Source: an uncultured Clostridia bacterium (GTDB lineage: Bacteria > Bacillota > Clostridia > TANB77 > CAG-508). Taken from it: a stretch of DNA of 62,542 nucleotides. Shown piece after piece: positions 736 through 13,669 of this stretch; within the stretch, counting starts at the first letter, position 1, and every line of letters begins with the position of its first letter. Under the pieces are notes generated by a model. It made no database searches. It was not told the DNA's origin and saw nothing but the letters and a program-made list of their open reading frames with translations. The DNA lies in NCBI GenBank assembly GCA_944392425.1, contig CALXWM010000003.1, forward strand, positions 1 to 62,542. The letters are read 5' to 3'. The translations under genes were made by a program, and so were the position numbers.

Positions 736-1101
736 ATGAAAAACAAAAAAAATCTATTTAAAAAAATAACAGTTTTTGCACTAGCCTTACTAAGTGCTTT
801 CATAGGCAATAGTGTTTATGCTGGAATATCATTACCATCAAATATGAGCAGTATATATTCAAACAATGATCCAGTAGCATCATCTATAGGTGGACAAATA
901 ATTTGGGTAGCACAAATAATTCTATATGCAGCAGCAGTTATAATTGTTATATTTGCAGGAGTTAAATACATGGGAGCAGCACCAGAAGCAAAAGCAGAGT
1001 TTAAGAAAAAACTAATATACATGACTGTTGGTGCAGTTATTTTATTTGCAGCAGGTTCACTGGTAAGAATAATTGGCGGAATTGCATTGAACAACTTATA
1101 A
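736..1101 (+). CDS. VirB2/TrbC-like T4SS pilin candidate 1 (signal peptide plus two-helix hairpin)
   Basis: Signal peptide ending SVYA|G. Two hydrophobic helices are joined by the short charged loop GAAPEAKAEFKKK. 121 aa, first gene of the operon. Confidence 0.6.
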   Translation: MKNKKNLFKKITVFALALLSAFIGNSVYAGISLPSNMSSIYSNNDPVASSIGGQIIWVAQIILYAAAVIIVIFAGVKYMGAAPEAKAEFKKKLIYMTVGAVILFAAGSLVRIIGGIALNNL

Positions 1102-1183
1102 AAAAATTACAAAATTTATAAAAATAATTAAGGAAAGGAGAGTATGCTGTATTTAAGTCGTTAAATATAACATACAAGGATAT

Positions 1184-1564
1184 ATGAAAAAAATTCTAAA
1201 AAAATCAATAGCACCTATTATTACATTAATGGCAATAATGTTTAACAACAAAGTATTTGCATTTGGAGATATAAAAGAAGATGGAGATAGCTTTATAAGT
1301 AAAGGAAGTACATCAAGCCCAATAACTGTACAAGAAGCATGGGACAACCTTTTACCAATTGCACAAATATTATTAGCAATTGCATCAGTAGTATTAGTTA
1401 TTGCATATATGTATTTAGGAATTCAATACATGATAACAGATCCACAAGGAAAAGCAGATATTAAGCAAAAACTAATAGGATTAGTTTTTGCAACAGTAAT
1501 TATTTATGGTGGAATAGGAATATTTACAGTTATCATTAACCTATTCAATTCAATTTTTGCATAA
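1184..1564 (+). CDS. VirB2/TrbC-like T4SS pilin candidate 2 (paralog of 736-1101)
   Basis: Signal peptide ending KVFA|F and the same helix-loop-helix layout (YLGIQYMITDPQGKADIKQKLIGL). 126 aa. Confidence 0.6.
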   Translation: MKKILKKSIAPIITLMAIMFNNKVFAFGDIKEDGDSFISKGSTSSPITVQEAWDNLLPIAQILLAIASVVLVIAYMYLGIQYMITDPQGKADIKQKLIGLVFATVIIYGGIGIFTVIINLFNSIFA

Positions 1565-11056: not shown

Positions 11057-11071
11057 GTTAAGAGGTGAAGA

Positions 11072-13669
11072 ATGAAAGTAAAAAAATTGTCTAATAAGAT
11101 AATAACACTAATTGTACTAATTTTTATAACTTTAATAAGTTGTGGAAACAATGTCAAAGCTAATCAAATAGATTTTAGTATGGCATACCTTCAAGAAATA
11201 GTAAAAAATTATTATAATGATAAAGAAATTAATGATGCCCTTCCGGCGGACAGTCCTTTTAAAGGTCAAGCAGATGCTACAATTGATTCTATCATATCAC
11301 AGGCATGGGGAAATGATGCACTAGGTTTTATTGAAGACTTTACAACAACATATGAAAATACTACTGGTACAGAGACTGAAAAAAACAAGGCAGCATTAGT
11401 AAGTGCTTTATCAAAAATAGATCAATTTAGTGGTGTGGCAAATAACATAGTAAATTTTTCAATAAATGAACAAAAAATTACAGAGGACTCAGGAGACACG
11501 AGCAATACAGAAAATAATGATGATTCTGATAACACAACTAATACAACGGCAGTAAATGTAGATGATATAAAACAAATGCTTTATGATTATTATACTAGTC
11601 CAGAATATGCCAATGTAAATGGTGGTGTCGACTCATCTACTGCTGAACAGAAGGCACAATCACTAGTTGATAAATATGGTTCACAAATGGTTGAAGCATA
11701 TAATAATGCGTATAATAGTAGTACATTAACAAATGAAGATGAAAAAAGAGAATATGCTTTTCAACAAGCAATAGCTGTAACGCAAGGAGAAGATCCTATT
11801 CTTGATGGAGACTATACAGGTGAGTCTATATCAGGAGGAAATATTCTCGGAACAATAGTTGATGGTATAGCTGGTATATTAATTTATATACCTAAACTTG
11901 TACTAATGATAATAGGAGCATTGCTACTAAGAATTATTGGCTTTGCAATAAATGGCATCGATGGTTTGGTAAATGGAATACCATTAGATCAAATATTATT
12001 TAATAAAATTGAACTACTAAAAGTAAACTTTTTTTCAAGTGTAGATCCAAATGACGCAAATGCTCAAATAATTGAGTCAATAAGAGAAAATATCGCGGTT
12101 TGGTATGTAGCTATTAGAAATTTAGCTGCTGTTATACTTGCTGTAATGGTTTTGTATGTTGGAATAAGAATGGCAATTTCATCTGTTGCAGAAGAAAAAG
12201 CAAAATATAAGAGAATGTTAACAGACTGGGTTGTTAGCTTAGTGTTACTATTTGTACTCCATTACATTATGATACTTATTATAAATATAAATGATGCAAT
12301 AGTTAGTGTACTTGCAGCTGCAAATGAAAATGGTAAAGGAGCTCCAACTTCCATAATGGATGACTTATGGGTAAAATCACTAACTACAGTTTCGTTTACT
12401 GAACAAATAGGTTATGTGGCACTATATTTTATGCTTGCTATAATGATTTTTGTGTTTTTTGCAACATATGTAAAACGTATGATTACTATTGCATTTTTAA
12501 TAATGATTTCTCCTATAATTACTATTACATATTCATTAGATAGAATGGGTGATGGAAAATCTCAGGCGCTAAATACGTGGTTTAAAAACTTTGTATACAA
12601 TATACTATTGCAACCATTCCAATGTATTATTTATTTAGCTTTAGTAAAAACAGCAATAGAAGCAATAGATGCAGCGAACTTATCCACAGTTATTATTGCG
12701 ATAATAATGGTATTCTTTATGTATGAAGCGGAAGATATTATAAAAGAAATATTCCACTTCGAAGGAAAGAGTGTAGCAAATACTATTGCACAAGCAGCAT
12801 TAGTAACTAGTGCAATTGGACTTGTATCAAAAGCGGCTTCTGGTGCAAAAGCAGTTAGAGGATATGCAAAAAGTACACCTTCACAAAATAATACGACAAC
12901 TCCTACACAAACAGGAATTCAGAAGCCGGGAGCAGAACCACCCGGTCAGCAAGAATCAGGAGCAGGACAACCTGGGGGACAGCAAGAACCAAAGACACAA
13001 CAACCAGAGCCTCAACCTGAACCTCAAAACAATGTGGAAAAAGATGCAACAGGATATTCAAGACAATCTGGTGGTGCTAGAGGTGCAGTACTTGGTATTG
13101 CAAAGAAAGCCGGTAAAGCAGCAATAAAAGGTGCTATAAAATTACCATTTGCAGTTGCATTTGGTGCGATGGGACTTGGAACTGGAAATTTATCCACAGG
13201 AATTACAGCATTTCAAGCAGGTAGTGGGCTTACAGAAGGATTTTTAGCAAGTAGAGAAGAAAAAGCTAACTTACACAATTTTGCCAAAGATTATAATAAT
13301 ATAGCACAAGAGTATACTTCAAGAGGATATGATAATAACCAAATAAGAGAGCATACAAAAGATTTATTAAATGGAGATGTATCAGCAAAAGATTGGGAAA
13401 AAGATTATTATGATTCAATTGTTAAAGAAATGGATAGATATATTGCTCAAGGTTTATCAGCAGATGATGCTATAACCCAAGTAGAACAAAACGTTGCAGG
13501 TATACAAGGTGGATATCTTGGAGAAGCAACAGTAGAACAAAGATTTAAAGGAAAAATAAGTGATGCAGTAAAAAATAGAAGAAGACACAATTATGGTTCA
13601 GCAAATGTAAATCAAAACAGCGGAGACCCAAACAATCAAAATGGTGGAAATCCAAATAATCAAAATTAA
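11072..13669 (+). CDS. VirB6-like polytopic membrane protein, paralog 3, with N-terminal exodomain and P/Q/G-rich tail
   Basis: Signature IAVWYVAIRN...LYVGIRMAIS...AKYKRML and block SPIITITYSLDRMGDGKSQ..NTWF. Low-complexity PGAEPPGQQESGAGQPGGQQEPKTQQPEPQPEPQ at about 12880-13035. Confidence 0.55.
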   Translation: MKVKKLSNKIITLIVLIFITLISCGNNVKANQIDFSMAYLQEIVKNYYNDKEINDALPADSPFKGQADATIDSIISQAWGNDALGFIEDFTTTYENTTGTETEKNKAALVSALSKIDQFSGVANNIVNFSINEQKITEDSGDTSNTENNDDSDNTTNTTAVNVDDIKQMLYDYYTSPEYANVNGGVDSSTAEQKAQSLVDKYGSQMVEAYNNAYNSSTLTNEDEKREYAFQQAIAVTQGEDPILDGDYTGESISGGNILGTIVDGIAGILIYIPKLVLMIIGALLLRIIGFAINGIDGLVNGIPLDQILFNKIELLKVNFFSSVDPNDANAQIIESIRENIAVWYVAIRNLAAVILAVMVLYVGIRMAISSVAEEKAKYKRMLTDWVVSLVLLFVLHYIMILIININDAIVSVLAAANENGKGAPTSIMDDLWVKSLTTVSFTEQIGYVALYFMLAIMIFVFFATYVKRMITIAFLIMISPIITITYSLDRMGDGKSQALNTWFKNFVYNILLQPFQCIIYLALVKTAIEAIDAANLSTVIIAIIMVFFMYEAEDIIKEIFHFEGKSVANTIAQAALVTSAIGLVSKAASGAKAVRGYAKSTPSQNNTTTPTQTGIQKPGAEPPGQQESGAGQPGGQQEPKTQQPEPQPEPQNNVEKDATGYSRQSGGARGAVLGIAKKAGKAAIKGAIKLPFAVAFGAMGLGTGNLSTGITAFQAGSGLTEGFLASREEKANLHNFAKDYNNIAQEYTSRGYDNNQIREHTKDLLNGDVSAKDWEKDYYDSIVKEMDRYIAQGLSADDAITQVEQNVAGIQGGYLGEATVEQRFKGKISDAVKNRRRHNYGSANVNQNSGDPNNQNGGNPNNQN

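Follow-up and report, generated by a model that had tools for sequence, protein, structure and literature searches.

The 62,542-nucleotide window analyzed here, from an uncultured gut Clostridia bacterium, carries a cluster of forward-strand genes for a monoderm, MPF-FATA-like type IV secretion system (T4SS). The cluster opens with pilA (736..1101), which encodes a 121-aa precursor of a free VirB2/TrbC-type pilin (recognized by Pfam TrbC, Pfam T4SS_pilin and hydropathy), and its paralog pilB (1184..1564), which encodes a second free pilin of 126 aa (recognized by Smith-Waterman comparison and a pilin HMM). A PrgI/VirB3-like small membrane protein of 150 aa follows (1580..2032; Pfam PrgI E 3e-4, below cut-off) and belongs to a 38-member family found at the equivalent position in related loci. 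The adjoining gene (2034..3221) encodes a membrane-anchored protein of 395 aa that represents the N-terminal half of VirB4 as a separate gene: it matches positions 54-393 of the 894 in NCBIfam VirB4_plasma (E 6.6e-4), has a precomputed PF26593 TraC-like assignment, and contains one N-terminal transmembrane (TM) helix by hydropathy. The VirB4-type ATPase itself (3248..5200; 650 aa) is identified by NCBIfam conju_CD1110 (E 2.3e-67), VirB4_plasma (E 2.9e-60) and Pfam P-loop_TraG (E 1.7e-15). Downstream lie L389 (5215..6384; 389 aa); a conserved 492-aa protein (6474..7952) with one N-terminal TM helix and a large outside domain, for which family searches including Pfam and NCBIfam returned no match and whose position is occupied by a ~500-aa protein in related loci; an NlpC/P60 cell-wall hydrolase of VirB1-type function (7962..8858; 298 aa; Pfam NLPC_P60 27.7 bits, cut-off 23); and L711 (8921..11056; 711 aa) and L865 (11072..13669; 865 aa). 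Neither a relaxase nor a coupling protein was found in the DNA examined around the cluster; within it, Pfam and NCBIfam searches recognized no VirB5-like protein, and no outer-membrane components were recognized. The pilin-bearing cluster is chromosomal and conserved across many uncultured gut Clostridia, a setting that is more novel than the kinship described below.

PilA and PilB are, on their profile matches, free VirB2/TrbC-type pilins, as a first-pass annotation of this DNA had proposed. PilA comprises a signal peptide, a short outside segment, a first TM helix, a charged loop (AAPEAKAEFKKK) and a second TM helix. It scores above the Pfam cut-offs for both TrbC (28.1 bits against 27.9) and T4SS_pilin (PF18895; 28.8 bits against 26.6, E 1.3e-6) and seeded a pilin family that has 98 members in related loci. 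PilB lies below both cut-offs (TrbC 18.6 bits, E 0.0022; T4SS_pilin 16.6 bits, E 0.0085), scores 106.5 bits with the pilin HMM, and is clearly paralogous to PilA (Smith-Waterman z 12.6); the two genes share 79% DNA identity over 68 nt. Hydropathy places the TM segments at approximately aa 50-83 and 92-119 in PilA and aa 52-85 and 95-125 in PilB, with the hairpin blocks at aa 73-104 (nt 952-1047) and aa 77-107 (nt 1412-1504; loop TDPQGKADIKQK), respectively, and in both cases the hairpin module makes up essentially the entire mature protein. The pair immediately precedes the PrgI-like gene and VirB4, and the inspected related loci keep this order; every related locus that reaches far enough has pilin genes upstream of its L389 ortholog. 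Pilins number from one to four per locus, while the large paralogs are constant at three.

The large proteins L389, L711 and L865 are paralogs with a homologous hairpin as their first two membrane helices. All three are polytopic, with ~5-6 hydrophobic helices, and are encoded in the VirB4 neighborhood, as judged from hydropathy, modeling and gene order. In L389, a signal peptide and a ~115-aa ectodomain precede the pilin-like hairpin (helices aa 143-183 and 187-232, nt 5641-5910; block aa 175-208, nt 5737-5838), which is followed by three more long hydrophobic helices. In L711, a signal peptide and a short outside segment lead into the hairpin (~aa 69-158, nt 9125-9394; block aa 101-134, nt 9221-9322), after which come a hydrophobic core and a ~400-aa Lys-rich hydrophilic tail, whereas L865 combines a signal peptide, a ~300-aa ectodomain, the hairpin (~aa 329-418, nt 12056-12325; block aa 361-394, nt 12152-12253), a hydrophobic core and a low-complexity C-terminal tail. 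The ectodomains before the hairpin are variable across the large family and differ among the three paralogs. The hairpin loop ranks among the best-conserved parts of the family, with aa 163-200 holding 10 of the 23 family residues that are nearly invariant. All five proteins, small and large, carry signal peptides and a hairpin with a Lys-rich loop.

Several independent comparisons connect the hairpins of the small and large proteins. PF18895 matches all five; among the large proteins, L389 (27.1 bits, E 4.3e-6) exceeds the gathering score of 26.6 bits, and L865 (24.1 bits, E 3.8e-5) and L711 (15.8 bits, E 0.015) fall below it. The envelopes (L389 aa 156-211, L711 aa 81-140, L865 aa 337-395) coincide with the approximate hairpin coordinates given by the first-pass annotation, all of whose quoted peptides are present, and its claim that one hairpin is common to the five proteins is confirmed by PF18895, the HMMs and hhalign. 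The remaining membrane proteins of the cluster have no PF18895 match at E<=1; among 93 diverse large-family members, 59 are matched at E<=0.01. Against a pilin HMM trained on no large protein, the large hairpins score 18.5-27.5 bits (L711 18.5-24.3, L865 24.2-24.9) and those of relatives up to 35.7 bits, compared with at most 10.8 bits for reversed decoys. In the other direction, an HMM from the large-protein hairpins alone finds the upstream small pilin genes in 39 related loci; in its own window, it matches PilA weakly and leaves PilB unmatched. Finally, hhalign comparison of a profile of 70 free pilins (39 related genomes) with one of 93 diverse large proteins gives a probability of 95.8% (E 7.2e-9), aligned exactly at the hairpin. 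Across all runs, the probability is 95-96% (E 2e-9 to 3e-8) and the similarity is limited to the hairpin but extends along both helices beyond the loop, whereas the controls (the rest of the large proteins, the PrgI-like family and the PrgH family) reach at most 1.4%.

These comparisons bear directly on whether generic transmembrane composition, or convergence, could account for the likeness instead of homology. Helical hairpins are common, pairwise identity between small and large hairpins is only ~22-30%, and the PilB-L389 pair taken alone is not significant (Smith-Waterman z 1.5). Set against this, the hhalign signal at the hairpin far exceeds that of control membrane helices, reversed decoys score well below genuine hairpins, and PF18895, an independently curated model, picks out the five proteins alone among the cluster's membrane proteins. 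Convergence is therefore largely refuted and, in our judgment, very improbable. From sequence comparison, then, the five segments are homologous copies of one VirB2-type pilin fold, in which a short Lys-rich loop connects two long membrane helices. Shared residues include G-I-K/R in helix 1, K-A-x-x-K-K-x-L in the loop, which is the best conserved element common to pilins and large proteins, and L-F in helix 2. The previously suggested consensus G-(I/V)-(K/Q/R)-x-M holds for the pilins by regular expression but not for the large proteins, which read G-I-R-M, with the methionine one residue earlier. Comparison of the small and large genes at the DNA level reveals no similarity, which indicates an ancient relationship rather than recent gene conversion.

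The identity of the large proteins as VirB6 subunits is more qualified. Pfam TrbL/VirB6 (PF04610), which is present in PrgH and TrwI relatives, has no match in L389, L711 or L865 (E<=1) or in 93 relatives (E<=0.01), and formal VirB6/TrbL family membership is consequently unproven. Profile comparison of the large family with the PrgH or TrwI families gives probabilities below 1%, although with these shallow alignments the positive control, PrgH against TrwI, likewise yields 0.16%, so the comparison lacks power. The AlphaFold2 model of L389 (pLDDT 87) contains five long helices, like PrgH, and R388 TrwI/VirB6 accounts for five of its top six Foldseek matches in the PDB (probability 0.63-0.93; target-normalized TM score 0.27-0.49; weak E-values of 0.06-0.4). 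The control PrgH, a bona fide Gram-positive VirB6, matches the identical TrwI chains with E ~1e-3 and TM scores of 0.35-0.54, so the E-values for L389 are ~50-100 times worse, and its fold match is supportive without reaching significance. The L389 gene directly follows VirB4. NCBIfam searches add scores below cut-off for L389 with MMCAP2_0566 (44.6 bits, cut-off 90, E 1.1e-11) and Mbov_0396 (19.8 bits, cut-off 70, E 4.5e-4) and for L865 with MMCAP2_0566 (19.8 bits, cut-off 90, E 3.8e-4), and neither model matches L711; by these scores, the large proteins are related to the MMCAP2_0566/Mbov_0396 families without being members. From its position just before the VirB4 gene, we presume that the Mbov_0396 family is CDS16. 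CDS16 is viewed in the field as the likely VirB6 (PMC12857230). If the two are the same, the weak Mbov_0396 match of L389 supports a VirB6-like identity. The location of the genes, the arrangement of the helices and the top fold match of the model together point to L389, L711 and L865 as divergent, extended VirB6-like subunits. Of the earlier designation "three VirB6-like paralogs", paralogy with a homologous hairpin is thus established, and the VirB6-like part is partly shown, given the missing TrbL match and the weak TrwI E-values. Canonical VirB6 proteins, to our knowledge, have no signal peptide or ectodomain before the first helix.

This architecture also invites a different assignment, in which the large proteins are giant or minor pilins whose hairpin sits in the pilus lattice and whose ectodomains, including the wall hydrolase in relatives, are exposed at the fiber tip or along its length, replacing the missing VirB5 tip protein or an adhesin. 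The hairpin amounts to a complete pilin module and shares the topology of a pilin, a VirB5-like protein is not recognized in the cluster, and the pre-hairpin ectodomains are variable and unlike one another; because the N-terminus of VirB2 pilins faces the fiber exterior, an N-terminal fusion is sterically conceivable. However, at least three extra long hydrophobic helices and the long C-terminal tails could not be accommodated in a pilin lattice, the whole fold resembles TrwI/VirB6, and the large proteins keep to three per locus while pilins vary. We consider this assignment unlikely.

Under the VirB6-like assignment, the hairpin is most likely a pilin-like membrane anchor and a docking element at which free pilins assemble. 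The hairpin would fix the VirB6-like subunit in the membrane with pilin topology, its ends outside and its loop inside. In the relatives L015 and L033, blastp shows the NlpC/P60 hydrolase and the L711 ortholog as one fused protein with the hydrolase at its N-terminal end, and since a wall hydrolase must be extracellular, the N-terminal side of the hairpin is placed outside. Being pilin-like, the hairpin would present a pilin-type lateral packing surface, on which membrane-embedded pilins may dock before being lifted into the growing fiber, and a ring of such hairpins would provide the pilus with its base layer ("layer zero"). The earlier suggestion of a common assembly interface or pilus base fits the current VirB6-VirB3 model of pilin recruitment, in which the VirB2 recruitment site of R388 is built from TM helices of VirB3 and VirB6 (PMC12624023) and pilins are stacked on a VirB6 pentamer (PMC12624023; bioRxiv 10.64898/2025.12.18.695078), as also modeled for Gram-positive systems (bioRxiv 10.64898/2025.12.18.695078). 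Alternatively, the hairpin could serve mainly as a common handling signal on pilins and large subunits, read through its Lys-rich loop by one insertion, recognition or extraction machinery (Sec/YidC, the VirB3-like protein or the VirB4 ATPase working as a dislocase), and would then take no direct part in contact between pilin and platform. The prominence of the K-A-x-x-K-K-x-L loop in the shared region would suit such a signal, and the large family has two conserved loops, at aa 184-195 and 302-313, that are both predicted to lie in the cytoplasm, on the VirB4 side. Yet the similarity spans both helices, co-evolution in R388 sets VirB2 against the VirB6 transmembrane helices themselves (PMC12624023), and a handling signal is compatible with docking rather than exclusive of it; as the main function, it appears improbable. 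The best overall explanation, to which we assign a probability of roughly 0.6, combines homologous pilin modules, VirB6-type large subunits and an anchoring and docking hairpin. Of this, the analysis demonstrates that the five modules are homologous and conserved, where they sit in the proteins and that the genes around them are those of a T4SS; we infer the VirB6 identity at the level of fold only, and likewise the oligomeric state and the docking or templating role of the large proteins.

The first-pass annotation regarded a pilin hairpin within channel-type subunits as an unusual architecture, which prior work contradicts. The N-terminus of VirB6/CedA was reported to be homologous to the VirB2/CedA1 pilin, and the same kinship was found at lower significance for A. 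tumefaciens VirB2/VirB6 (Beltran et al. 2023, PMC9905601). The membrane anchor of R388 VirB6 consists of just two N-proximal helices (PMC12857230), and relatives of L389 are already tagged PF18895 in the database searched. In the archaeal pairs CedA1/CedA and TedC/TedA and in A. tumefaciens VirB2/VirB6, as in the cluster, a free pilin accompanies a polytopic VirB6-like protein near VirB4, with an N-terminal region homologous to nearly the whole pilin (PMC9905601). Those relationships are seen with profile-profile search only, whereas here ordinary HMMs suffice and a Pfam cut-off is reached; the cluster further differs in the signal peptide and ectodomain before the hairpin, the three paralogs and the bacterial monoderm host. 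In the R388 system, with TrwI (VirB6) and TrwL (VirB2) (PDB 7O3V, 8RT9, 8RTD), TrwI is the best PDB fold match of L389; the VirB6 gene likewise follows VirB4, and the two N-proximal helices that anchor VirB6 are part of the VirB2 recruitment site. In contrast to R388, the cluster has large proteins without a Pfam TrbL match and with Foldseek E-values of 0.06-0.4, lacks recognized VirB5 or outer-membrane components, and has long extra tails on L711 and L865.

Gram-positive plasmid T4SSs such as that of Enterococcus pCF10 (PrgF/PrgH) are likewise monoderm, with a two-TM pilin, a VirB6-like protein, PrgI/VirB3 and a CD1110-type VirB4, and their pilins, including that of pCF10, have been modeled on a VirB6 pentamer (ter Beek et al. 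2025 preprint). Unlike the cluster pilins, PrgF lacks a signal peptide, and its score of 10.8 bits with the pilin HMM is not a meaningful match; PrgH is a Pfam TrbL member in which hhalign detects no similarity to the cluster pilins, and the pCF10 system, carried on a plasmid, includes a relaxase and a coupling protein. In the Mycoplasma ICE, a pilin-like protein (Mbov_0395), a membrane protein (Mbov_0396/MMCAP2_0566) and VirB4 (Mbov_0397) form the same trio, which by gene order we take to be CDS15, CDS16 and CDS17. The cluster pilins match NCBIfam Mbov_0395 far below cut-off (E 1e-3 to 8e-3), and the ICE system differs in being a mobile element with VirD4 and no wall hydrolase. Rickettsiales extended VirB6, MPF-FA Tn916 Orf15 and pCW3 TcpH show, as here, several VirB6 paralogs per system, and the extended proteins (700-900 aa) similarly place large hydrophilic extensions on a 5-6-helix hydrophobic core (PMC12857230); the likeness to L711 and L865 is one of architecture, and the extensions are unrelated. 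In Patescibacteria, a different phylum from the Bacillota (Clostridia) host, the available text of Quinonero-Coronel et al. 2025 (PMC12102498) describes a T4SS that is likewise chromosomal, MPF-FATA-like and usually without a relaxase, with divergent PF18895/TrbC-type pilin arrays beside VirB4 together with PrgI/VirB3 and VirB6-like proteins; that portion of the report makes no mention of a pilin module inside the VirB6-like proteins.

A broader reading, which we regard as possible but rather doubtful, is that the cluster is a domesticated, chromosomal, relaxase-less, pilus-forming T4SS of a whole clade of uncultured gut Clostridia, used for something other than conjugation, and the Bacillota counterpart of the essential Patescibacteria system. 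Its three VirB6-like paralogs, one of which is fused to the wall hydrolase in relatives, would use their pilin-homologous hairpins to form a ring that serves as the first pilus layer. If so, pilin and VirB6 would meet through a conserved homotypic pilin-pilin contact that both inherited from their common ancestor.

As the kinship of pilin and VirB6 has been known since 2023, the cluster illustrates a known principle with a clear new case. Current models of how VirB2 is recruited to VirB6 and polymerized on it rest on co-evolution and AlphaFold predictions. The cluster makes the VirB2-VirB6 kinship unusually legible, with plain HMMs, three paralogs and thousands of relatives (3,576 clusters at 50% identity), and the shared hairpin residues offer ready-made targets for mutagenesis and multimer modeling of the pilin-platform interface. 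Until 2025, Gram-positive T4SSs were believed to lack such VirB2/TrbC pilins; with this cluster, a cell-walled Bacillota lineage joins the short list of monoderms with Pfam-recognizable VirB2/TrbC pilins.

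A single co-directional gene cluster on the + strand spans window positions 736-16383 and begins with two small membrane proteins, pilA (736-1101, 121 aa) and pilB (1184-1564, 126 aa), each consisting of a signal peptide, a short outside segment and two hydrophobic helices with a Lys-rich loop. pilA scores above the gathering thresholds of both TrbC/VirB2 and T4SS_pilin (PF18895), pilB is its paralog, and both are VirB2-type pilins. Matches to Pfam/NCBIfam families identify the next three products as a PrgI/VirB3-like protein (1580-2032), a membrane-anchored N-terminal half of VirB4 (395 aa, 2034-3221) and a VirB4 ATPase (650 aa, 3248-5200). 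The remainder of the cluster encodes three polytopic VirB6-like proteins named by their length in amino acids, L389 (5215-6384), L711 (8921-11056) and L865 (11072-13669), together with a 492-aa protein with no assigned function (6474-7952), an NlpC/P60 wall hydrolase recognized by Pfam/NCBIfam (7962-8858) and an 897-aa protein (13690-16383). Gene order is identical among the related loci inspected, drawn from 39 species-level uncultured Clostridia genomes with an L389 relative; typically three small pilin genes are present per locus (range one to four), and 31 of 40 loci carry three large paralogs. VirB4 is split over two genes in every related locus inspected, and its 395-aa part has one transmembrane helix, matches the N-terminal half of Mycoplasma-type VirB4 and carries a precomputed Pfam TraC-like assignment. 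The 897-aa and 492-aa proteins are conserved, with one N-terminal transmembrane helix each, and find no family match in Pfam or PHROGs or, for the 492-aa protein, in NCBIfam; orthologs of the 897-aa protein in relatives sit downstream of the last VirB6-like gene.

The two pilins and the three large proteins share a homologous two-helix membrane hairpin. The five peptides on which the first-pass annotation based this resemblance are each present at their positions in the sequence, and several independent tests (PF18895 matches, reciprocal HMMs, reversed decoys and profile-profile comparison) place the likeness above generic membrane composition. Firstly, PF18895 matches pilA (E 1.3e-6), pilB (0.0085), L389 (4.3e-6, above the gathering score), L865 (3.8e-5) and L711 (0.015), with zero matches at E<=1 to the other membrane proteins of the cluster; within the very large L389 family (3,576 clusters at 50% identity), it matches 59 of 93 diverse members. 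Secondly, an HMM built only from the hairpin region of 93 large proteins, searched against all ORFs of the window and 39 related loci, retrieves small genes (117-147 aa) located ahead of VirB4 with hardly any other matches; in the window itself it scores pilA weakly and misses pilB. Conversely, an independently built pilin HMM (jackhmmer seeded with pilA, small ORFs only, 98 sequences) scores 27.5 bits on the hairpin of L389, 24.2 on L865 and 18.5 on L711, and up to 35.7 bits in relatives, against 10.8 bits for the top reversed decoy. Finally, the profile-profile check proposed in the first-pass annotation, run with 70 pilins against 93 large proteins, returns a probability of 95.8% (E 7.2e-9) and aligns pilA 51-118 with L389 154-221, compared with at most 1.4% for the pilin profile against the remainder of the large proteins, the PrgI-like family or the family of PrgH, the VirB6 of pCF10. 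The pilB-L389 pair by itself is not significant. Chance resemblance between unrelated membrane helices is largely excluded by these controls and is, in our judgment, very improbable.

Common to both groups are G-I-(K/R) close to where helix 1 ends, a loop with K-A-x-x-K-K-x-L, and L-F within helix 2. The consensus motif initially proposed for all five proteins describes the pilins, the only proteins its regular expression matches; for the large proteins it is one residue out of register. At the DNA level, no match between small and large genes exceeds 36 nt (all at E>=0.003), which indicates an old relationship and led us to reject recent gene conversion of the hairpins from pilin genes. An internal triplication, in which the remainder of the large protein would consist of more pilin-like hairpins, is likewise unsupported (hhalign probability 0.3%). 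A PDB sequence search with L389 and the alignment profiles A1 and A5 returned nothing relevant, and a PHROGs search gave no match. Searched with hmmsearch against single sequences, our profiles gave no more than trivial scores for TrwI and TrwL (the VirB6 and VirB2 of R388) and for PrgD-PrgL, with the pilin HMM scoring 10.8 bits on PrgF (VirB2-like, pCF10) and 8.5 bits on TrwL.

The large proteins are paralogs, 32-49% identical in their hairpins and 28-33% in the remainder of the core. Each begins with a signal peptide and an outside segment, whose length differs among the three (about 50, 115 or 300 aa), and continues through the hairpin into further long hydrophobic helices; L711 and L865 also have hydrophilic tails of 300-400 aa. 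In a confident AlphaFold2 model of L389 (pLDDT 87), the hairpin is formed by a 41-residue helix (aa 143-183) and a 46-residue helix (aa 187-232), and another three long helices come after it, the same helix plan as in the PrgH model. In a Foldseek search of the PDB with the L389 model, five of the top six matches are R388 TrwI/VirB6 chains, with probability up to 0.93, TM-score up to 0.49 and weak E-values of 0.06-0.4; PrgH, a bona fide Pfam TrbL member used for calibration, reaches similar TM-scores against the same chains (0.35-0.54) at E of about 1e-3. No TrbL sequence match was found in L389, L711, L865 or 93 relatives, and aligning the large-family profile with those of PrgH and TrwI by hhalign gave no match, a result that is uninformative because the positive control likewise failed. 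Weak NCBIfam matches point to the Mycoplasma ICE families MMCAP2_0566 (E 1.1e-11) and Mbov_0396 (E 4.5e-4). We take the latter to be probably CDS16, since it directly precedes the VirB4 family Mbov_0397. CDS16 is considered the likely VirB6-like component in a 2025 nomenclature review (PMC12857230). Position, architecture and best fold match support the large proteins as putative divergent, extended VirB6-type subunits.

Helix 3 of the L389 family contains its sole two invariant columns, R285 and P297, 12 residues apart, with a conserved Asp nine residues beyond P297 (L389 aa 285-306, window 6067-6132). The PrgH family has invariant R155 and P167 at equal spacing in the corresponding helix, followed in PrgH itself by D176 (aa 155-176, locus L044 20559-20624), and TrwI has K170 and P181, then WQPT. 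This pattern may be a VirB6 signature, but it is not supported statistically. In a related locus, L037, the second VirB6-like paralog seems interrupted (ORFs 11180-11497 and 11646-13187): a 105-aa ORF stops ahead of helix 1, the next one starts with the Met in the hairpin's G-I-R-M, and the 149-nt gap approximates the size of the absent helix. A frameshift, pseudogene or assembly error is the probable cause.

Signal peptides and the Lys-rich loop indicate that the ends of the hairpin lie outside and the loop inside, as in VirB2. The NlpC/P60 hydrolase is a separate gene beside L711 in the window, as it is in the related locus L020, and is fused directly upstream of the hairpin in the L711 ortholog of two relatives (L015 12685-15858, L033 12697-15996), so that one polypeptide joins the hydrolase to the pilin-like hairpin and VirB6-like core. 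Because the site of action of a wall hydrolase has to be extracellular, its placement N-terminal to the hairpin supports the same orientation. A second hydrophobic module (D-G-I-x-G ... I-G-F ... I-D-x-L) is shared between the C-terminal end of the hydrolase (aa 236-298, window 8670-8855) and the segment just before the L865 hairpin (aa 246-330, window 11807-12061; Smith-Waterman z 5.9, 0/1000 shuffles), and a conserved motif, (F/Y)-T-I-x-D-x-x-x-N-K-x-x-L-x-x-I-N-x-F, is found ahead of the hairpin in L389, L711 and L865 alike. Few stretches of the large family are as conserved as the hairpin loop, and 10 of the family's 23 nearly invariant residues fall within aa 163-200. Alternatively, the hairpin could serve chiefly as a common handle for insertion or for VirB4-driven extraction, a reading that we consider unlikely.

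The preferred reading, that the hairpin would be a pilin-homologous membrane anchor of VirB6-type subunits, has precedent. Beltran et al. described homology between the N-terminal region of the archaeal VirB6-like protein CedA and the CedA1 pilin, obtained the same result at lower significance for VirB2 and VirB6 of A. tumefaciens, and proposed that one evolved from the other (PMC9905601), and L389 relatives already bear the PF18895 tag in the database searched. In principle, then, the architecture is not unusual, contrary to what the first-pass annotation had held; its underlying observation stands and its interpretation is supported in part. The cluster provides a clear new example of a relationship already known. 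What is particular here is the clear signal, the signal peptide and ectodomain ahead of the hairpin, the three paralogs per locus, the split or fused wall hydrolase and the host lineage. In the R388 structure, only two N-proximal helices hold VirB6 in the membrane (PMC12857230), and the transmembrane helices of VirB3 and VirB6 are the proposed VirB2 recruitment site (PMC12624023). A December 2025 preprint reports that most Gram-positive plasmid systems have VirB2-like pilins, and models these on VirB6 pentamers (bioRxiv 10.64898/2025.12.18.695078). From the R388 and pCF10 models, we infer a docking role, an oligomeric state and a fibre: the hairpin would offer a pilin-type packing surface on which free pilins probably dock before being lifted into the fibre, and hairpins arranged in an oligomeric ring would look like the first layer of a pilus. 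The large proteins, which pair a pilin-like hairpin with further long helices, might themselves enter the fibre as minor or tip pilins, but we find this as doubtful as the handle reading.

The window DNA (~30% G+C) occurs on metagenome contigs, and related sequences belong to genomes of uncultured Clostridia, assembled from metagenomes of gut-associated and other animal origin. Outside the cluster, the window encodes housekeeping proteins (MraW, penicillin-binding proteins, Mur ligase, FtsW, topoisomerase I and GatA/GatB) and possible adhesins of Gram-positive surface type. The latter are very large proteins with thioester, SpaA, DUF11, Cna_B and collagen-binding domains, encoded within a few kb beyond the downstream end of the cluster (20833-24603, 24850-30105 and 37032-40709), and a GGDEF protein is encoded at 31297-32268. 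Flanking housekeeping genes vary from genome to genome among related loci and include M16 peptidases, LytR-CpsA-Psr, D-Ala-D-Ala carboxypeptidase, ComEA, topoisomerase I and ABC-F. In the complete 1.8-Mb genome OZ006973.1 (L037), a gene for a ComEA-type DNA-binding protein (SLBB plus HHH_3, 3739-4386) sits a short way (~0.3 kb) upstream of the first gene of the pilin array, a proximity that may be fortuitous or may point to a connection with DNA uptake. Scanning 20 larger proteins from the remainder of the window revealed neither a relaxase nor a coupling protein. Across the window and the loci L015, L020, L033, L034, L037 and L040, with the flanks of five related loci covered, no relaxase, coupling protein or integrase was seen. 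Neither megablast with the region (plasmids) nor tblastn with L389 (plasmids and phages) gave a match; at BLAST sensitivity, the L389 family is thus not seen on catalogued plasmids or phages. VirB2-like pilins are now recognised in Patescibacteria (PMC12102498). More novel than the hairpin is its setting: a T4SS cluster that is chromosomal, carries pilins and stands between housekeeping genes, with no relaxase or coupling protein in the DNA examined. It gives the impression of a domesticated chromosomal T4SS and recalls the Patescibacteria system.
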